Source: an uncultured bacterium
GTDB taxonomy: Bacteria; Auribacterota; JABMQX01; JAFGEW01
Assembly (NCBI GenBank): GCA_965369835.1
Contig: CBDUSE010000002.1
Location: forward strand, 1,346 to 65,345
DNA length: 64,000 nucleotides
Direction: 5' to 3'
Shown here piece by piece: positions 41,075 to 46,889 of the stretch (positions within the stretch are counted from its first letter, which is position 1; every line of letters starts with the position of its first letter). The translations under genes and the position numbers were made by a program. The notes beneath the pieces are model-generated. The model was not told where the DNA came from, searched no databases, and was given only the letters and a program-made list of their open reading frames with translations.

Positions 41075-41125
41075 ATTCTATCCGCGCCAGATATGTCAAG
41101 GAGAAAAACCAATTTTTCCGCCCCG
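41075..41125 (-). promoter_or_regulatory. Candidate promoter for the tRNA-Thr-tuf transcript: TTGACA -35, TAGAAT -10-like hexamer (spacer only 13 nt) and an A/T-rich UP-like tract
   Basis: Reverse complement reads ggggcggaaaaattggtttttctccTTGACAtatctggcgcggaTAGAATaaag. This is the only AT-rich tract upstream of the tRNA. The spacing is non-canonical, so the call is weak. Confidence 0.3.
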
Positions 41126-41794
41126 GCTTATAGGCCCTTTTTCGGGCCAAATCGGGGCGGCTTCAGGAACTCCGTCCTCGAGGTTCCTGCCCGGCCGGCG
41201 GCTGGTGAGCGCACCTCGCTCGCGCGCGTCGCGGCGGACGCTCTCGAAAAACGCCAGGTGGGCGGGGTCTCGATAGTCGGAGTAGGTCCACTCGAGCGGC
41301 TGGAACCCCTTGTCCCTGTAGACGAGCATCGGCTGGGCGTAGATCCCGCCTCCGAGGTACACCCTGTACGACGCTTCTTTGGTGGAAGCGATGACGAGGT
41401 TGCTCAGGGTAAGGTAGCCGGGATCGACGTTGAAGACGCGGCGCCCGCCCCGCGCGTGCGCACGCTCGAGAGCCCCGGTCTCTACTTTGGTTTGCCCAAG
41501 CGCGCCCGGGTCCACGGGCCACTCGAAGGCAAGGAACCAGCGCGTCAGCTCCGGCCCCATCTCGGCGGCGTAGTAGCGGCTCCAGGTAAACGGGGCCGCT
41601 TCGCTCGCCATGCGCACCGGGCCGTGGCGCGCCTCCATCAGCGAGGTCGCGAGGCCGAGCGCGTCCTCGCCCGCAGCGAGCACCCCGGCGATCAGCACCG
41701 CGTCCGGCACGCGCTTGCGCCTCTCTTCACCACGCTCCTTTGTAGCAAGACAAACATACGCCGCCCACGGAATCCACAGAAGAAGCTCACCCAC
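41096..41794 (-). CDS. DUF4416-like hypothetical protein. The start is uncertain, and the conserved part begins near VLIAGVL
   Basis: Pattern FTWSRYYAAEMG ... RVFNVDPGYLTLSNLVIASTKE ... RVYLGGGIYAQPMLVY ... WTYSDY matches my recollection of the DUF4416 family. High GC, like the core genome. Confidence 0.5.
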   Translation of the reverse strand: MGELLLWIPWAAYVCLATKERGEERRKRVPDAVLIAGVLAAGEDALGLATSLMEARHGPVRMASEAAPFTWSRYYAAEMGPELTRWFLAFEWPVDPGALGQTKVETGALERAHARGGRRVFNVDPGYLTLSNLVIASTKEASYRVYLGGGIYAQPMLVYRDKGFQPLEWTYSDYRDPAHLAFFESVRRDARERGALTSRRPGRNLEDGVPEAAPIWPEKGPISRGGKIGFSP

Positions 41795-41812: not shown

Positions 41813-42319
41813 CTACTCCCCGGAGAACTGCTTGAGCAGGCGGCTCATCGCCTGCTCGCCCTTGAAGAGGTAGCGGTCGAAGAGCTTGCGGTCGAGGGCG
41901 TTGCCCTCCGCAACGAAGGTCTCGAATGAGTCGAGGGCGAGCTGGAGGTAGTTACACACCTGCAGGAAATCCTGGGCGAACGATACGTCCTGGTGCTCGT
42001 CGAGGGCCGCCTCGCGCTTGAGCTTCGTGCCGCACTTGACCAGCACGGCGAGGAACTTCTCGTTGCGGTCGAGCTCGATGTTCGCCTCCTCTTTCGTCAG
42101 CAGGCCCGCCCGGTAGGCGTTCATCGTCATCACGGTCGAGGAGTAGATCGCCGTCAGGCCGTAGAGCATCAGCTCGACCTTGCCGAAATCGTCCTGTGCA
42201 CGAACCGGCAGCGGCGCCCCCACGAGGCCGATGCCAACCACGACCGCTATCGTCATCCCGATCAGTCTCTTCACTGTCCGCCTCCTTTGAATCGCCTTCG
42301 TCCCTCTCGCCCGCCGCAC
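41813..42319 (-). CDS. Hypothetical secreted protein (signal peptide ... PLPVRAQDD)
   Basis: N-terminal basic region followed by a hydrophobic helix and AxA-like site, then a mostly helical sequence. I recognised no known motif. Confidence 0.45.
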   Translation of the reverse strand: MRRARGTKAIQRRRTVKRLIGMTIAVVVGIGLVGAPLPVRAQDDFGKVELMLYGLTAIYSSTVMTMNAYRAGLLTKEEANIELDRNEKFLAVLVKCGTKLKREAALDEHQDVSFAQDFLQVCNYLQLALDSFETFVAEGNALDRKLFDRYLFKGEQAMSRLLKQFSGE

Positions 42320-42409: not shown

Positions 42410-42910
42410 TCAGGCCGGTAATCGAAGCAACACCATCAGGACGTACGACGCGAAGTTCATGCCCACGGCGGTCACGGCGGCGCGCCTCAACTGCCAGCGG
42501 CCAAACAGGAGCATGAGTGGAGCGCCCTCGACTCCGAGCGATATCCCAAGGACTGCGAACAGGTGCGGCTGGAAGTTGAAGCCCCAGTAGTCGAAGTACA
42601 CGCCGGTTGTAAGTCCAATGACAGCGGAAGCGCCGTTGAGTGCCCCAGCCAGCAGAAGCGCCCTCGGCCAGCTCGGCCCGTCGATTCTGAAGAGCGCCAG
42701 CTTGATTACGGCCCCCTCAAGGAGCACGATGAGCGCGTAGATGTAGACGATGATGACCGCCTGCCGCGCGGTGAACAAGGATGAACCGACGGGGTTGGCC
42801 CAAGCAGGCGTCGGCGCAAGGGCCACAAGGTCAAGAAGTAAGGGAGCGAAGAGGCGGATCGCGTGTCGGCGCGCGCCCATAGGGCACCTCCTTTCCCCGG
42901 GCGCGCTCAC
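42410..42910 (-). CDS. Hypothetical integral membrane protein (4-5 TM)
   Basis: Strong Shine-Dalgarno (GGAAAGGAGG) and alternating hydrophobic segments. No recognised motif. Confidence 0.5.
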   Translation of the reverse strand: MSAPGERRCPMGARRHAIRLFAPLLLDLVALAPTPAWANPVGSSLFTARQAVIIVYIYALIVLLEGAVIKLALFRIDGPSWPRALLLAGALNGASAVIGLTTGVYFDYWGFNFQPHLFAVLGISLGVEGAPLMLLFGRWQLRRAAVTAVGMNFASYVLMVLLRLPA

Positions 42911-42977: not shown

Positions 42978-43658
42978 TCAGGAGGCGACTTGGCGGAGGA
43001 AGCTCTTCACTTGGTCGAATGCGCTGTCGCTCCAGGGCCAGTAGTCTTTGAAGGCTGCTAGCCCGAGATGCTTCTGAAACTCCTGCTCTGAAGCCAAGAG
43101 CACGTGCATTCTTGCCTTGGACTCTTGCTGAGGCCGCGGCATGCCGCGTTCGTCAAGACACTCGAAGAACCGATCGGCGCACGCCATCGCAGGGCTACCC
43201 TGGAAGGCTCGCAGGCAGAGATCCTCAAAGCTTCCCGGTGTTCTCTCGTCGGGCAACACCATCACCGTGACCTTGACCGGGCCGGTCGATGTGACCAACG
43301 GACGCTTGGGAACCGGTAACTTCACGAGCAGCTTGGGATTCTGCAGAGCACCGCGGATCTTGTCGAATGCCGCTTGTGGGTTGTCATGTGCATCCAGCTC
43401 AATGCCGATGGACTTGACCAGCGGGTCAAACCGCCTGTTCTTTACGACGGCGTCAAGCGCAGGGCGCAGGTTGTTTTCGCCCTGGATGTTGATGACCTGA
43501 ATCTGGCACAAGCCCAAGTGCTTAGCTAGGGCTTTGAAGAAGGGAAGTTCGTCATCGCCTTCGACAAGGAGGAGACTTGGTGCCTCGATCGTGAGGCGCT
43601 CAAAGCCGCGTGCGTGGGCATGTACCAGCTCGTCCTGCTCGGTTTGCCCCTCGTTCAT
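42978..43658 (-). CDS. Small partner protein of the ATPase, with a TOPRIM-like/DUF4276-like N-terminus (LLLVEGDDE...)
   Basis: Its start overlaps the ATPase stop by 4 nt. An N-terminal acidic LVEGxxE motif is followed by downstream Asp-rich segments (IGIELDAHD, VMVLPDE), resembling OLD-family/RloB/DUF4276 partners. Lower GC than the flanks. Confidence 0.5.
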   Translation of the reverse strand: MNEGQTEQDELVHAHARGFERLTIEAPSLLLVEGDDELPFFKALAKHLGLCQIQVINIQGENNLRPALDAVVKNRRFDPLVKSIGIELDAHDNPQAAFDKIRGALQNPKLLVKLPVPKRPLVTSTGPVKVTVMVLPDERTPGSFEDLCLRAFQGSPAMACADRFFECLDERGMPRPQQESKARMHVLLASEQEFQKHLGLAAFKDYWPWSDSAFDQVKSFLRQVAS

Positions 43659-44710
43659 CGCACCTCCAGACGGGCTTTGATCGCTCCCTCGATGGAATCC
43701 TCGTCGTATGTTACAGCGCGCACAACGTCATCAACCCTGTCAAGCCTGTGCAAGCGGAAGTCGTACTCGGGGGATCCGGCGAACGCCCTGTGGGCCGCGA
43801 AGATGCACTCCCAGCTGTGAGTGGTGGCAAAGACCTGCGCATCGAATTTCCGGGCGGCTTCTGCGATGGCTCGCCACAAGTCCACCAGAACTGAGTGGTG
43901 AAGACCGTTTTCAATTTCATCAACGAGAACTACTCCGCCACGAGCAGCTCCAATTGCCAAGATCAAGCTGGTTATGCGGACCATGCCCTCTCCCATGTAT
44001 AGGAGGGGCAATGGTGGGCCATTCGCCACATAGCCGAATCTCAATGGCACGCCGCCCGCTGGGAAGCCCAAGCTCACTTTCTCCAGCCTTGGCTCAATGA
44101 GCTTGAGAGCTTCTAGGAGAACGTCCAAGTGGCCCTTGCCCTCAAGCTCCGTAAATCGCTTTGCGTCCTCGTCCAGGGGCACGCGCGTCCTGGCGGGAAT
44201 GATAATCGTTGGGAAGGGCGCAGATGGACCCTGCCTCAAGAGCTTAGGCATGCCACCCTGAATGAACCAAAAGACTTTGCCTGTGCGTTGCTTTTCGCGG
44301 TACTCAAGCTCGAGTAACTGTGGCAAGAGGAACGCGGGCGCGTCCTTACGCGCGATCTCCTGCAACTCTTTTTGGTCCCGGACGACACGGAGTTGCAGGA
44401 GGCGTTGCGTCGTGCCGTCAAAGGAGCCCGATAGCTTTATCTCTGTGGATGTATCGAGCATGTGGAACAGTGAAGCCCACGGGCCTTCAGCCCATCCTCC
44501 TGTCTCAGATGTCAGCGTTGGCACCCCGCGGTGCCCCTCCACAGCCCTTATGAGATCCGGGTTGTAGGCCCCGCCGTGGAGGAAGAGGGCCTCCAAGAGC
44601 GCGGTCTTTCCGGCGTTGTTCAGGCCTGCTATGAGATTGACGCGGGCCAGGTCTTTGATCGTGAAGTCGCGAAAGCACCGGAAGTTTCTTGCTTCAAACG
44701 ACTGGTACAT
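43655..44710 (-). CDS. ABC-type (AAA_21/OLD-like) P-loop ATPase. Likely start at ATG 44710 (MYQSFEARNFRCF...), preceded by GAGGTG. The track ORF extends to 44815
   Basis: Walker A GLNNAGKTALLEALF, Walker B VVLVDEIENGLH, His-loop ATTHS and a signature-like MGEGMVRIT. No transporter TM partner. Visibly lower GC. Confidence 0.7.
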   Translation of the reverse strand: MYQSFEARNFRCFRDFTIKDLARVNLIAGLNNAGKTALLEALFLHGGAYNPDLIRAVEGHRGVPTLTSETGGWAEGPWASLFHMLDTSTEIKLSGSFDGTTQRLLQLRVVRDQKELQEIARKDAPAFLLPQLLELEYREKQRTGKVFWFIQGGMPKLLRQGPSAPFPTIIIPARTRVPLDEDAKRFTELEGKGHLDVLLEALKLIEPRLEKVSLGFPAGGVPLRFGYVANGPPLPLLYMGEGMVRITSLILAIGAARGGVVLVDEIENGLHHSVLVDLWRAIAEAARKFDAQVFATTHSWECIFAAHRAFAGSPEYDFRLHRLDRVDDVVRAVTYDEDSIEGAIKARLEVR

Positions 44711-44831
44711 GGCGCACCTCTCGAACCGCTGGCATATCATGCCTTGACACGCCTTACGCTTACCAGCCGGTGTTGCCGAAGTCAATTCGATTCGGAAGCC
44801 GCCGGAGACGACCAACCCGAAGAGTGCGAAG

Positions 44832-45014
44832 TCACTCTCTGAGCGTCTCCACTTTCTCGATGGTGAGGGTGTGGTGCGTGTGGTCGTTTTGGACGGTACC
44901 GGTGAGCAGGTAGGGGCCCGGCGTGGCGAGGAGGTGGCCGTAGCGGGCGTAGGCGTCGGGGAAGAGGACGGTCTCGAGGACGCCCGTTATGTCCTCGACG
45001 CTGAGGAAGCGCAT
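44832..45014 (-). pseudogene. dnaE: Orphan C-terminal fragment (60 codons) of DNA polymerase III alpha subunit (OB-fold region)
   Basis: MRFLSVEDITGVLETVLFPDAYARYGHLLATPGPYLLTGTVQ...LTIEKVETL aligns by eye with the DnaE C-terminal OB segment (xxLDDxSGxLEVxLFxDAxxKYxxLLxxDxxLxVxGxV). There is no room for the remaining ~1100 codons, because mrdA ends 45 nt upstream. Confidence 0.5.
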
Positions 45015-45059
45015 CTGCTCGCCGCGCGCGGGAAAATGTGAGAAAAAGAAGAACTGCTT

Positions 45060-46889
45060 CTAATCTCTGGCGAAGTAGGCTTCGAGGAACTCGGCAGCAA
45101 GGGGCGCGGCGGTCCGGCCGCCGGTCTCTCCCTCTTCCACCAACACCACCACCACGATCTCGGGCGCATCCGCCGGCGCGAACGCGATGAACCACGCCAG
45201 GTTCGTGCCCGACTCCTTCGACCCGACCTCGGCGGTGCTTGTCTTGCCCGCCACCTCGAGGTGCTGCAGGTTCCTGAACGCCCGGTAGCCCGTCCCCCCC
45301 TCGCGCGTGACCTCACGGAGCCCCTCCTTGACGAGCGCGAGGCTCTCGGGGCTCAGCTCGATGCGCCGCGACTGCGGCGGAAACTCCTCGACGCCGTCGG
45401 CCCGGACGATCCGGGTGACGAGCCGAGGCTTGAACTGCACGCCGTCCATTGCCACGGCCGAGTAGATCTGCGCGACCTGCAGCGGCGTCACCTCGAGCGG
45501 ATACTGCCCGATGCTCAGGTTGATTGTGTAGCCGGGGAGCCAGGAGCGGTACGTCCTGGCGCGCCAGTCGCTCGAGGCCTGCCATTCGGGAGTCGGGTTG
45601 ACGCCTGCGCGTTCGTTCGGCAGCTTCACGCCGGTCGGCTTGCCCAGCCCAAGCTCGGCCGCGAGCGACACGATCGGCTCGCGGCCGATATGGTGGCCGG
45701 TCTTGTAGAAGAAGACGTTGCACGACTTCTTGATGGCTGTGACGACGTTGACGTCGCCGTGCGAGTGCCGGCGGTAGCAGTCCCACGTGTATCGCCCCAG
45801 GCTGAACGTGCCCGGGCAGTTGAAGATCGTCTCGCCCGTGATGCGCCGCTTCTCGTCGGGCAGGTTGAGCGCCGCGAGCGCTACCACCACCTTGAAGGCG
45901 GAGCCGAGCGGGTACTGGTCGTTGATGCACCGGTTCCAGAGCGGGCGCGACGTGTCTTTGTTGAGGCGTTGGATCTCGGCGACCGCCTCGGGCGGTCTTG
46001 GGATGGCGAAGACGTTCGGGTCGAAGCTCGGCGTGCTGGCAAGCACAAGCACGTCCCCGTTGCGGGGATCCATCGCCACGAGCGCGCCGCGCCTCTCACC
46101 GAGGATCCCATAGGCGAGGCGCTGCAGATCGGTGTTGATCGTCGTGTAGATGTCGCTCCCCGCGGTAGGCTTGTCTTTGTCGTCGAGGATGCGCCGACGC
46201 CGCCCGTGGTTGTCCACCTCGAGCATGGTCGAGCCTTTGCGCCCGTGCAGCTCGGCCTCGAACCAGAGCTCGAGGCCCGCCAGGCCGACCACGTCCCGCC
46301 CATCGTATTCGAGCTCAGGCCACTTGGTCCTGAGCCTCTCAAGTGCCTCCTTGCCCGGCACGAGGCCGGTGTAGCCGAGCGTCTGCGCGGCATGCGCGCC
46401 GTGCCGGTAGCGCCGGGCAAAGTTCGTCATCGGCATGAGGCCCGGCGTGACCGGTTCGAGCACCTTGAGCTTCGTGTACTCCTCAAAAGAAATGTCGCGC
46501 TTGATCGTGACCGGCACGTAGGGGATCACGTTCCGGGGGTCGAGCCGCGCGCGGATCGTCTCCTCGGGCATGCCAAGCACGTCGCGCAGCACCTCGACGA
46601 CCCGCTTGAGCTCAGCCCGGCTCGTCGCCTCGCTGTAGTCCACGCACGCGTCGAGCCGGGCCCGGTTGTCGGCAAGCGGACGGCCGGAGCGGTCAAGGAT
46701 CCGGCCACGCGCCGGCCGCACGGTCACGCCGCGCTTGCGGTTGCGCAGCCCGAGTTCCCGGTAGCGGGTTGCGTGCACGACCTGGAGCGACCAGAGCCGC
46801 AGCATGAGGATCACGAAGCAGATCGTCAGCAGCATGAGGATCGCGCGCGGTCGCCCCGTCAGACCCGGTCGTGGACGCGGCTCAATCAT
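45060..46889 (-). CDS. mrdA: Peptidoglycan D,D-transpeptidase PBP2
   Basis: N-terminal TM anchor, dimerisation domain, and transpeptidase motifs SAFK, SxN (SCN) and KTGT in order. Confidence 0.9.
   Translation of the reverse strand: MIEPRPRPGLTGRPRAILMLLTICFVILMLRLWSLQVVHATRYRELGLRNRKRGVTVRPARGRILDRSGRPLADNRARLDACVDYSEATSRAELKRVVEVLRDVLGMPEETIRARLDPRNVIPYVPVTIKRDISFEEYTKLKVLEPVTPGLMPMTNFARRYRHGAHAAQTLGYTGLVPGKEALERLRTKWPELEYDGRDVVGLAGLELWFEAELHGRKGSTMLEVDNHGRRRRILDDKDKPTAGSDIYTTINTDLQRLAYGILGERRGALVAMDPRNGDVLVLASTPSFDPNVFAIPRPPEAVAEIQRLNKDTSRPLWNRCINDQYPLGSAFKVVVALAALNLPDEKRRITGETIFNCPGTFSLGRYTWDCYRRHSHGDVNVVTAIKKSCNVFFYKTGHHIGREPIVSLAAELGLGKPTGVKLPNERAGVNPTPEWQASSDWRARTYRSWLPGYTINLSIGQYPLEVTPLQVAQIYSAVAMDGVQFKPRLVTRIVRADGVEEFPPQSRRIELSPESLALVKEGLREVTREGGTGYRAFRNLQHLEVAGKTSTAEVGSKESGTNLAWFIAFAPADAPEIVVVVLVEEGETGGRTAAPLAAEFLEAYFARD

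Follow-up and report, generated by a model that had tools for sequence, protein, structure and literature searches.

Two overlapping genes at positions 42978-44710 of the window (the whole 64-kb stretch of DNA analysed) encode a compact ABC-type ATPase and a DUF3226 protein. Judged from HMM E-values, match spans and gene adjacency, the pair is a member of the widespread, already catalogued candidate anti-phage system PDC-M38. Its function is most likely that of a split OLD/PARIS/AbiL-like defence or addiction module, in which the ATPase would serve as the sensor and a TOPRIM nuclease as the effector. For DUF3226, a large domain of unknown function with about 2800 clusters at 50% identity and, since 2007, a structure without a function, the result provides a concrete fold together with a likely role. 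In bacteria and archaea alike, this domain would supply the TOPRIM part of an ATPase-nuclease cassette that resembles OLD, PARIS and AbiL and is split over two genes. The pair in the window is an ordinary instance of this catalogued family and is mainly useful as a divergent sequence for comparison.

Gene structure and chromosomal setting

Both ORFs were found on the minus strand where the initial annotation had placed them. The partner gene (42978..43658, 226 aa, ATG start) encodes an OLD-type TOPRIM domain together with a helical lobe. The ATPase ORF extends in its maximal form from a TTG codon over 386 aa (43655..44815). The two genes share the four nucleotides ATGA (43655..43658), an overlap that had also been described correctly and that suggests translational coupling. 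The true start of the ATPase gene is almost certainly the ATG at 44710 (43655..44710, 351 aa, MYQSFE...), because every profile match begins at residue 36 of the 386-aa ORF, independent gene calls in two other assemblies (L002 and L003) give 351 aa, homologues begin with MYxSFE, and a Shine-Dalgarno-like GAGAGG motif is located 6 nt upstream (44717-44722). The 5' extension of the maximal ORF (44711..44815, minus strand), which carries this motif, is probably an untranslated leader or promoter region. Scans for sigma-70 promoters and intrinsic terminators yielded nothing convincing for the operon. Chance ORFs are excluded by 2340 database homologues of the ATPase (E<=1e-10) and 2782 cluster representatives for the partner (E<=1e-3).

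The surroundings consist of housekeeping genes, as reported before, and include rpoB, rpoC, fusA, tuf, two tRNAs, mrdA, mreC, mreD, radC and mutL. The pair itself is flanked by a dnaE remnant, mrdA and a small membrane ORF. The remnant (44835..45026, minus strand) lies outside the system and comprises the last 64 codons of dnaE with the OB-fold. It matches NCBIfam DnaE models and shares 78% identity with the 64 terminal residues of a genuine DnaE C-terminus in the sister locus L001, which bears out its earlier description as a dnaE fragment. In L001 at least 264 aa of the DnaE C-terminus are present at the same place. The remnant marks an ancestral location of the pair immediately downstream of dnaE. 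Apart from the pair itself, this part of the window contains no defence or mobility gene. No insertion mechanism was identified: the module is not bounded by repeats (direct or inverted), an integrase, a transposase or an att-like feature, and at least 2 kb with other genes separate it from either tRNA. Two further candidates were rejected. The 166-aa membrane ORF downstream of the pair (42410-42910) might have been a third component, but neither the sister locus nor any other locus contains it. A link to a retron or another non-coding RNA was dismissed as well: the two tRNAs are all that Rfam finds between 36 and 52 kb, and a reverse transcriptase gene is lacking.

The GC content over 42978-44710 is 58.3%, compared with an average of 65.3% for the whole window (sd 2.2 among segments of equal length), and no other segment of this length within the 64 kb is lower than these 1.7 kb. 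GC3 of the pair is 68-72% as against 87-91% in mrdA, mreC, mreD and tuf; in the nearer genes at 42410-42910 and 41096-41794 it is 78%. The lower GC content noted at the outset was thus confirmed, but the real contrast is smaller than the "mid-50s vs high-60s" then given. The foreign composition also agrees with the proposed horizontal acquisition. This acquisition was not recent, however, because a sister lineage keeps an orthologous pair (61-63% identity) at the same site, between dnaE and the same downstream gene. The residence at this site since the split from the sister lineage exceeds that of many defence cassettes, which counts against a defence reading.

The ATPase and its DUF3226 partner

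The ATPase matches the Pfam families AAA_15 and AAA_21. It is covered over the full length of two PADLOC models, PDC-M38A (PDLC04611, E 1.9e-56, positions 1-383/383, residues 36-386 of the long ORF) and AbiLi (PDLC02336, 1.8e-53, positions 1-340/340). The AriA HMMs cover it partially (7e-23 vs 2e-56 for PDC-M38A). Among defence ATPases, its closest relatives are those of the group formed by AbiLi, PDC-M38A and AriA. All motifs quoted in the initial annotation (Walker A GLNNAGKT, Walker B VVLVDEIENGLH and H-loop TTHS) are present. In the numbering of the 351-aa protein they correspond to G29-L-N-N-A-G-K35-T, VVLVD264-E265 and T-T-H298-S, and a signature-like motif, MGEG, is formed by residues 239-242. 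The motif residues are invariant or nearly so among 73 homologues. The insert (residues 46-230) is predicted to consist mostly of β-strands with short helices and contains no coiled coil. The ATPase is a compact ABC protein of the Rad50/SMC-like type without a coiled coil. A best similarity to transporter nucleotide-binding domains together with an adjacent permease gene was not found, in line with the earlier remark that it has no transporter partner.

The partner had been regarded as unassignable to any named family and as possibly DUF4276-like; neither description held. It is a full-length member of Pfam DUF3226 (PF11536, E 8e-27, 94.8 bits vs a cut-off of 27, positions 2-206/208) with a solved relative (PDB-entry 2P62), and all 67 aligned relatives match DUF3226 as well. 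DUF4276 was matched neither by the window protein nor by any of the 67 relatives at E<=0.05. Pfam DUF4435 gave no match for the partner and weak matches for 3 of the 67 family members, and PADLOC AriB models gave none for the partner at E<=0.1. The PADLOC model PDC-M38B (PDLC04624) matches residues 26-202 (positions 12-195/220) with an E-value of 4.4e-11. Its modest level is explained by the origin of the PADLOC models, which were derived from RefSeq genomes, whereas the window copy comes from an uncultured bacterium of the PVC group. A word-indexed search with the partner returned the protein itself and one orthologue, and an exhaustive profile search revealed the family. Likewise, a PDB sequence search with the single protein resulted in noise, and the DUF3226 family profile found 2P62 as a weak match. 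A search of GTDB genomes with a two-sequence partner alignment yielded no loci.

The AlphaFold model of the partner is confident (pLDDT 94.4). Its matches are PH0156 (2P62) and, after it, OLD-family proteins in their nuclease regions; in Foldseek, C-terminal regions of class 2 OLD proteins take the first three places (probability 0.99-1.0). Sub-threshold matches to OLD-like_TOPRIM were found in 32 of the 67 family members. The fold agrees with a TOPRIM-type alpha/beta core, in which a conserved glutamate follows strand 1 and the Asp-x-Asp motif comes behind strand 3. The TOPRIM-like character first proposed for this protein, which indeed contains LLLVEGDDE, is thus supported: the predicted fold is a TOPRIM of the OLD type, and its Glu and Asp motif is conserved.

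Residues E33, G34, G60, D89, E145, D146 and K181 of the partner are conserved across the family. C160 and C167 are invariant within the subfamily, where C148 is conserved too; the C160/C167 pair is invariant in the environmental clade and missing from the enterobacterial plasmid clade. These two cysteines might act as a switch that senses redox state or metals. In place of DxD the window copy has D89-A-H91, i.e. the second aspartate is replaced by histidine. Among 73 pairs this position is occupied by Asp (44), Glu (21) or Asn (7), with His in the window copy alone; the sister orthologue has Asn. The catalytic competence of the window copy is therefore not assured.

Distribution and evolution of the family

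A profile of the ATPase matches at least 567 species genomes from many bacterial phyla and from archaea, with an ATPase identity of ~50% between phyla. The DUF3226 gene directly follows the ATPase gene on the same strand in 72 out of 80 inspected GTDB loci, and the pair is complete in all eight metagenome or genome loci retrieved by other routes. The junction is tight in most of the 72 paired loci (most often -4 or -1 nt, otherwise 0 to +5). The two proteins co-evolve: their pairwise identities correlate with r = 0.73 (Mantel test, 0/2000 permutations). Both genes are under purifying selection; compared with the sister locus, dN/dS is 0.13 (ATPase) and 0.24 (partner).

The pair is poorer in GC than its flanks in 53 of 60 loci by a median of -7.5 points, the same value as for the window copy. 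It is nearly the sole cargo of non-mobilizable, 4.2-kb ColE1-type (ColRNAI) plasmids from Klebsiella, of which there are more than 110 records; in p48896_6 (NZ_CP024435.1) it occupies positions 437-2184. Of 18 viral contigs in IMG/VR that encode a related ATPase, 11 hold the full pair, and no homologue of the partner was found in GenBank phage genomes. Among 144 genes flanking 18 related loci, no enrichment for defence islands was evident. Most of these genes encode transporters, glycosyltransferases, flagellar proteins or two-component systems, with few defence-type matches, so that the clade is not typically located within defence islands. This setting and the lack of partner homologues in GenBank phage genomes count against a defence role.

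Proposed function and relation to known systems

Based on these observations and on analogy, we consider it probable that the pair is a translationally coupled cassette of the PDC-M38 family and that its ATPase and TOPRIM nuclease act as in PARIS, AbiL and OLD. The ATPase would bind the TOPRIM protein and hold it inactive. A phage- or plasmid-derived trigger, or remodelling driven by ATP, would then free or activate the TOPRIM protein. In the next step the latter would cut nucleic acid in a metal-dependent manner, by way of E33, D89, E145, D146 and K181. The substrate could be DNA, which OLD and GajA cut, or tRNA, the target of AriB. The outcome would be either growth arrest of the infected cell or destruction of the invader. 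Thus, complex formation, nuclease activity, trigger, substrate and the defence phenotype of the pair are what we infer from its relatives.

The proposal of a candidate anti-phage system in the initial annotation is in accordance with the matches of both proteins to PDC-M38 models. The same matches dispose of the suggested new variant, because PADLOC already lists the combination of ATPase and DUF3226 as PDC-M38, and the ATPase profile alone matches no fewer than the 567 species genomes mentioned above. PDC-M38 was proposed because it occurs embedded in BREX, DISARM and type I RM systems ("guilt-by-embedding"; Payne et al., 10.1101/2024.01.29.577857). PARIS and AbiL, in each of which an ABC ATPase is paired with a TOPRIM protein, are defence systems (PMC11464382, PMC13064643). 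For HEC-01, a related ATPase+TOPRIM candidate, no defence was observed (10.1101/2024.01.29.577857). A search of main texts in the literature for DUF3226, PF11536 and PDC-M38 found nothing relevant. If confirmed as defence, the pair would join the ABC-ATPase/TOPRIM group as a compact variant of ~580 aa in total, one that already circulates on small Klebsiella plasmids.

Instead of a dedicated anti-phage role, the pair might have a purely selfish one, with a TOPRIM toxin and an ATPase neutraliser forming an addiction module that resembles toxin-antitoxin systems and acts by post-segregational killing. We regard this as rather unlikely, even though it agrees with the near-exclusive cargo of the Klebsiella plasmids, with the tight coupling and co-evolution of the two genes, with the usual position of the pair alone among ordinary genes outside defence islands, and with the finding that PARIS itself acts as a toxin-antitoxin pair (PMC13064643). 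Such a module would also be compatible with defence, because many toxin-antitoxin-like pairs are abortive-infection systems. Moreover, family members are embedded in BREX, DISARM and RM systems (10.1101/2024.01.29.577857), and a purely selfish element would not need long vertical retention in a chromosome under purifying selection. The long stay at one site beside dnaE, the purifying selection and the location outside any defence island could have another meaning, and for these reasons the pair might, though this is quite improbable, have been domesticated in this PVC lineage for a non-defence role. It is distinctly unlikely that the change from DxD to DxH has ended TOPRIM catalysis, leaving the window pair in decay or with a non-nuclease role, e.g. 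nucleic-acid binding. The unique H91, the Asn of the sister orthologue and the rearrangement of the locus indicated by the dnaE truncation point in this direction. However, both ORFs are intact and retain E33, D89, E145, D146, K181, C160, C167 and every ATPase motif, and the dN/dS values of 0.13-0.24 speak against decay. Asn is found at the second DxD position in ~10% of otherwise well-conserved members, so this position tolerates change, and His91 and the adjacent D92 could still bind a metal ion.

A role in DNA repair or chromosome maintenance, as kin of RecF, RecN, SbcCD or RecR whose position near dnaE has a functional basis, is extremely improbable. The RecF and Rad50 matches of the ATPase span ~40 residues around the P-loop and are far below the curated cut-offs; for RecF (TIGR00611) the match is confined to residues 39-80 of the long ORF and scores 32.9 bits vs an NCBIfam cut-off of 172. 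A housekeeping identity of this kind, which the initial annotation had named as the outcome that would speak against its proposal, is also at odds with the lack of a coiled coil, the patchy distribution across phyla and domains, the variable context, the foreign base composition in most loci and the occurrence on small plasmids. In the 18 loci with neighbours scanned, neither dnaE nor repair genes were consistently linked to the pair. Finally, pairs of this ATPase and DUF3226 could constitute a distinct, mechanistically different branch of split OLD-like systems, since a compact ATPase without a coiled coil, a clade-specific cysteine pair and a relaxed second DxD position would fit; we consider this quite improbable. 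The preferred reading as a PDC-M38-family cassette with PARIS/AbiL/OLD-like action can be compared with known systems as follows.

In PARIS, AriA (~55 kDa) forms a hexameric scaffold by means of coiled-coil inserts, whereas the ATPase described here has 351 aa and a predicted β-rich insert without a coiled-coil bundle. AriB is a ~35 kDa DUF4435 protein, in contrast to the 226-aa partner, which matches neither DUF4435 nor the PADLOC AriB models. PH0156 from Pyrococcus horikoshii (2P62), a DUF3226 protein from structural genomics with 14% identity to the partner, is the listed structural match of a lactococcal AriB (PMC11381338). The OLD classes 1-3 (P2 Old/TsOLD; GajA/BpOLD; retron Eco8) differ by the fusion of ATPase and TOPRIM, which are separate ORFs in our pair. 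A UvrD-like helicase, the additional partner in class 2, and a reverse transcriptase, as in class 3, are both missing from the vicinity of the pair. Modules of AAA_21 and DUF4276 are distinguished by their partner, as the one found here is DUF3226.

For the ATPase, the similarity to AbiL from Lactococcus is closer. It matches the AbiLi model over its full length, and AbiLii is described as an OLD-like TOPRIM protein that superimposes on 6NJV (PMC13064643), as does the partner. No AbiLii model matches the partner in PADLOC (E<=0.1); a tblastn search of plasmids with the ATPase gave no Lactococcus record. With the PADLOC candidate PDC-M38, the pair agrees in HMM matches and in arrangement: gene A matches PDC-M38A and gene B matches PDC-M38B, in the same order, adjacent and on the same strand, with no difference in kind.

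Organization of the gene pair

The pair consists of two minus-strand ORFs; their overlap is as the initial annotation had described for 42978-44815. The partner ORF (42978..43658, minus strand) starts with ATG and encodes 226 aa. An ATGA start/stop overlap joins it to the ATPase ORF, which in its maximal form (43655..44815, minus strand) starts with TTG and comprises 386 aa. Since every ATPase profile match begins at residue 36 of this long ORF, the protein is called with 351 aa in each of two assemblies obtained independently for this organism, its homologues have the N-terminus MYxSFE and a GAGAGG lies 6 nt 5' of the ATG at 44710, the ATPase gene probably spans 43655-44710 (minus strand, 351 aa). 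The first 35 codons of the 386-aa ORF are probably left untranslated.

The Walker A, Walker B and H-loop motifs quoted initially, as well as LLLVEGDDE in the partner, are all present. Among 73 homologous pairs, the Walker A residues G29, N31, N32, G34, K35 and T36, the glycines of an MGEG signature-like motif (G240 and G242), the Walker B residues D264 and E265 and the H-loop residues T297, H298 and S299 (351-aa numbering) are invariant or nearly so. In Pfam the ATPase matches AAA_15 and AAA_21. The NCBIfam matches to RecF, Rad50 and MAD3 are confined to the P-loop region and lie far under the cut-offs.

The surrounding genes are indeed housekeeping genes: to one side lie rpoB, rpoC, fusA, tuf, the genes for tRNA-Thr and tRNA-Trp and a DUF4416 gene, to the other mrdA, mreD, mreC, radC, hflX, miaA and mutL. 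RpoB shares 87% identity with a MAG labelled Verrucomicrobia and ~64% with sequences from Auribacterota and Chlamydiae, which places the host among the uncultured bacteria of the PVC group. A search of the window for an integrase, a transposase, flanking repeats or a non-coding RNA that would bound the pair was negative. A gene at 41813-42319 (minus strand) encodes a 168-aa protein with a hydrophobic N-terminus and no Pfam family. Its orthologue in L001, a 3.6-kb metagenome contig from a sister lineage, is 66% identical, syntenic and located directly 3' of the cassette. A 166-aa ORF (42410-42910, minus strand) separates the pair from the next conserved gene; it contains hydrophobic segments and matches no Pfam family. 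It is missing in L001, which has about 300 bp instead, and in all other loci; we rejected it as a cassette component on these grounds, and it is either spurious or an insertion specific to this lineage.

Fold and conserved residues of the partner

The partner, initially considered unassignable to a named family, scores 94.8 bits (cut-off 27) with Pfam DUF3226 (PF11536) and is a full-length member of that family. A sub-threshold Pfam match to OLD-like_TOPRIM runs across the LLLVEG strand. The suggested likeness to DUF4276 was abandoned (0 of 67 relatives match), and DUF4435 is marginal, with matches in 3 of 67. An exhaustive profile search with the partner yielded 2782 family cluster representatives at E<=1e-3, typically of ~205 aa.

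An AlphaFold2 model based on an alignment of 67 sequences is confident (pLDDT 94.4, pTM 0.88). Its best three Foldseek matches are C-terminal regions of class 2 OLD proteins (probability 0.99-1.0); retron Ec67, RecR, Spo11 and DnaG follow further down the list. Because of these matches we describe the partner, as modeled, as an OLD-type TOPRIM domain with a helical lobe, and the TOPRIM-like fold anticipated at the outset is borne out.

Conservation was judged on two samples of 67 and 73 sequences. Across them, E33-G34, G60, D89, E145, K181, C160 and C167 vary little or not at all, and D36 and D146 are conserved for the most part. The family consensus around D89 is R-D-A-D-x-D. In the window the TOPRIM DxD reads D-A-H (H91, codon ~43386-43388) and in the sister orthologue D-A-N. 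Across the 73 pairs, the second position is occupied by D (44), E (21), N (7) or H (1), the sole histidine being the window copy. The catalytic metal site may thus be altered in the window lineage. The more distant homologue from Klebsiella plasmids keeps E33, G34, G60, D89, E145, D146 and K181 and lacks the conserved C148, C160 and C167.

All three cysteines are located on a single helix or close to it. C160 and C167, spaced by seven residues, are invariant in the 67 and in the 73 relatives, and C148 is kept in ~90% of the 67. They might form a metal site or act as a redox switch.

Distribution, inheritance and base composition

At every metagenome or genome locus fetched via either protein, the two genes are adjacent. 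An ATPase-profile scan of GTDB gave at least 567 loci, in Chloroflexota, Cyanobacteriota, Planctomycetota, Latescibacterota, Spirochaetota, Bacillota and Pseudomonadota as well as in methanogenic or ANME archaea. Eighty of these loci were kept for counting. In 72 the ATPase gene is immediately followed, on its own strand, by a DUF3226 ORF, usually at a spacing of -4, -1 or 0 to +5 nt; in 6-7 the ATPase is an orphan, and one locus has a DUF3226 remnant. Since the pairwise identities of ATPase and partner correlate (r = 0.73, a value reached in 0 of 2000 permutations), both genes are inherited and diverging together.

No downstream DUF3226 was detected for ~8% of the related ATPase genes (orphans L049, L064, L066, L072, L076 and L077), and one locus (L081) keeps a 32-aa C-terminal remnant. 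Such loci may be decaying cassettes, or their ATPases may have another partner.

Most of the 144 genes around 18 loci are ordinary ones, with only occasional TIR, AAA_21 and methyltransferase matches; the clade is therefore not usually sited in defence islands. Single loci nevertheless have neighbours of a defence or mobile type: one (L006) neighbours an N6_N4 methyltransferase-DUF559 gene and a DUF4258/DUF2283 pair, and mobile elements occur beside two others (a DDE transposase in L005, IS3 in L007). Over 110 ColRNAI plasmids of clinical Klebsiella, ~4.2 kb in size, contain besides rop and an HTH gene only a pair of the same families as in the window (for example K. pneumoniae p48896_6, L089, NZ_CP024435.1, 4167 bp). 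A few such plasmids occur in E. coli, Salmonella and Raoultella. With these Klebsiella plasmids, a model for experiments on the family is at hand. GenBank phages contain no partner homologue; 18 IMG/VR contigs carry a related ATPase, 11 of them with the full pair.

In L001 the orthologous ATPase and partner (63% and 61% identical) have on one side the true C-terminal part of DnaE, of at least 264 aa, and on the other the orthologue of the 41813-42319 gene. The dnaE fragment noticed initially beside the window pair comprises the last 64 codons (OB-fold; 45026-44835, minus strand), is 78% identical to L001 DnaE and has a dN/dS of ~0.15 against it; the 64-kb window holds no other dnaE sequence. 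Since the pair adjoins dnaE in L001 and a remnant in the window, its ancestral site was downstream of dnaE, already occupied in the common ancestor of both lineages. The homology ends ~30 nt past the mrdA stop codon (junction ~45027-45062). This implies either a later rearrangement that broke within dnaE and truncated or separated the gene in the window lineage, or an assembly join; the mrdA/dnaE-remnant junction is present in two assemblies. The dN/dS values against L001 (ATPase 0.13, partner 0.24), approximate because dS is saturated, indicate purifying selection on both cassette genes.

Three loci (L008, L013 from a Chthonomonadia MAG, and L015) share the context CLP1_P, NTP_transf_5, pair, flhA, flhF and glycosyltransferase; there, too, the pair has been kept by vertical descent next to flagellar genes.

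The low-GC, foreign composition noted initially holds in a windowed calculation: the pair's 58.3% is the lowest of 1246 equal-size windows across the 64 kb (mean 65.3%, sd 2.2). Its GC3 is 68-72%, against 87-91% in mrdA, mreC, mreD and tuf, with an intermediate 78% in the nearer genes at 42410-42910 and 41096-41794. L001 likewise has a GC-poor pair. Among 60 GTDB loci (from L009-L088) whose flanks extend for 8 kb or more, the pair lies below the flanks in 53 (median -7.5 points), and the window's deficit of -7.5 points is the family norm; regression of pair GC on flank GC has a slope of 0.67. Even where apparently inherited vertically (window, L001), the pair stays GC-poor, a persistent lack of amelioration.

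Proposed function and relation to known systems

In PARIS, the AriA scaffold keeps the TOPRIM nuclease AriB inactive until a phage trigger frees it to cleave tRNA (PMC11464382, PMC13064643). OLD and GajA proteins cleave DNA in a metal-dependent manner (PMC10568477), and AbiL is grouped with PARIS- and OLD-type systems (PMC13064643). By analogy with these systems we propose that the ATPase would act as sensor and regulator and the DUF3226 protein as a nuclease effector using E33, D89, E145, D146 and K181, with the caveat that His91 in the second DxD position qualifies catalysis by the window partner. On balance, the cassette is plausibly a module resembling abortive infection, directed against phages or plasmids.

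Similarity to the methylation-associated defence system MADS is weak: the Klebsiella DUF3226 protein (L089, 437-1069) matches mad4 (E 7e-4), four neighbour proteins in related loci match mad3, and the window ATPase N-terminus scores 34 bits with NCBIfam MAD3 (cut-off 420). This hints at a distant relationship between the ATPase and small-protein pair of MADS and the present one.

A PADLOC search agrees with the candidate-defence reading. The ATPase is matched over its full length by PDC-M38A (1.9e-56) and AbiLi (PDLC02336, 1.8e-53), with AriA (7e-23), HEC-01A, NsnB, GajA and PtuA far below, and the partner by PDC-M38B (4.4e-11), which also matches partners from cyanobacterial, archaeal and Klebsiella loci. 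PDC-M38 comprises cassettes CAS_00138 and CAS_00155, a predicted candidate from the supplement to the 2024 study by Payne et al. (10.1101/2024.01.29.577857); the literature searched has no main-text mention of DUF3226, PF11536 or PDC-M38. Of the first interpretation, the architecture, TOPRIM fold, foreign composition and candidate-defence role stand, whereas the DUF4276 likeness, the unassignable partner and the new variant do not, the last because the pair is already catalogued and its ATPase family is widespread.

Unlike PARIS, the window pair has neither a DUF4435 partner nor a coiled-coil AriA. It differs from OLD classes 1-3 and Gabija in its unfused domains and the lack of a helicase or reverse transcriptase, and from AAA_21+DUF4276 modules in a partner without DUF4276. 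With AbiL it shares the AbiLi match of the ATPase, but the partner does not match AbiLii. Since the cassette has both the HMM matches and the gene adjacency of PDC-M38 and lacks defining features of the other systems, it belongs to an already catalogued, uncharacterised kind and is very probably a PDC-M38-type ATPase+DUF3226 cassette.
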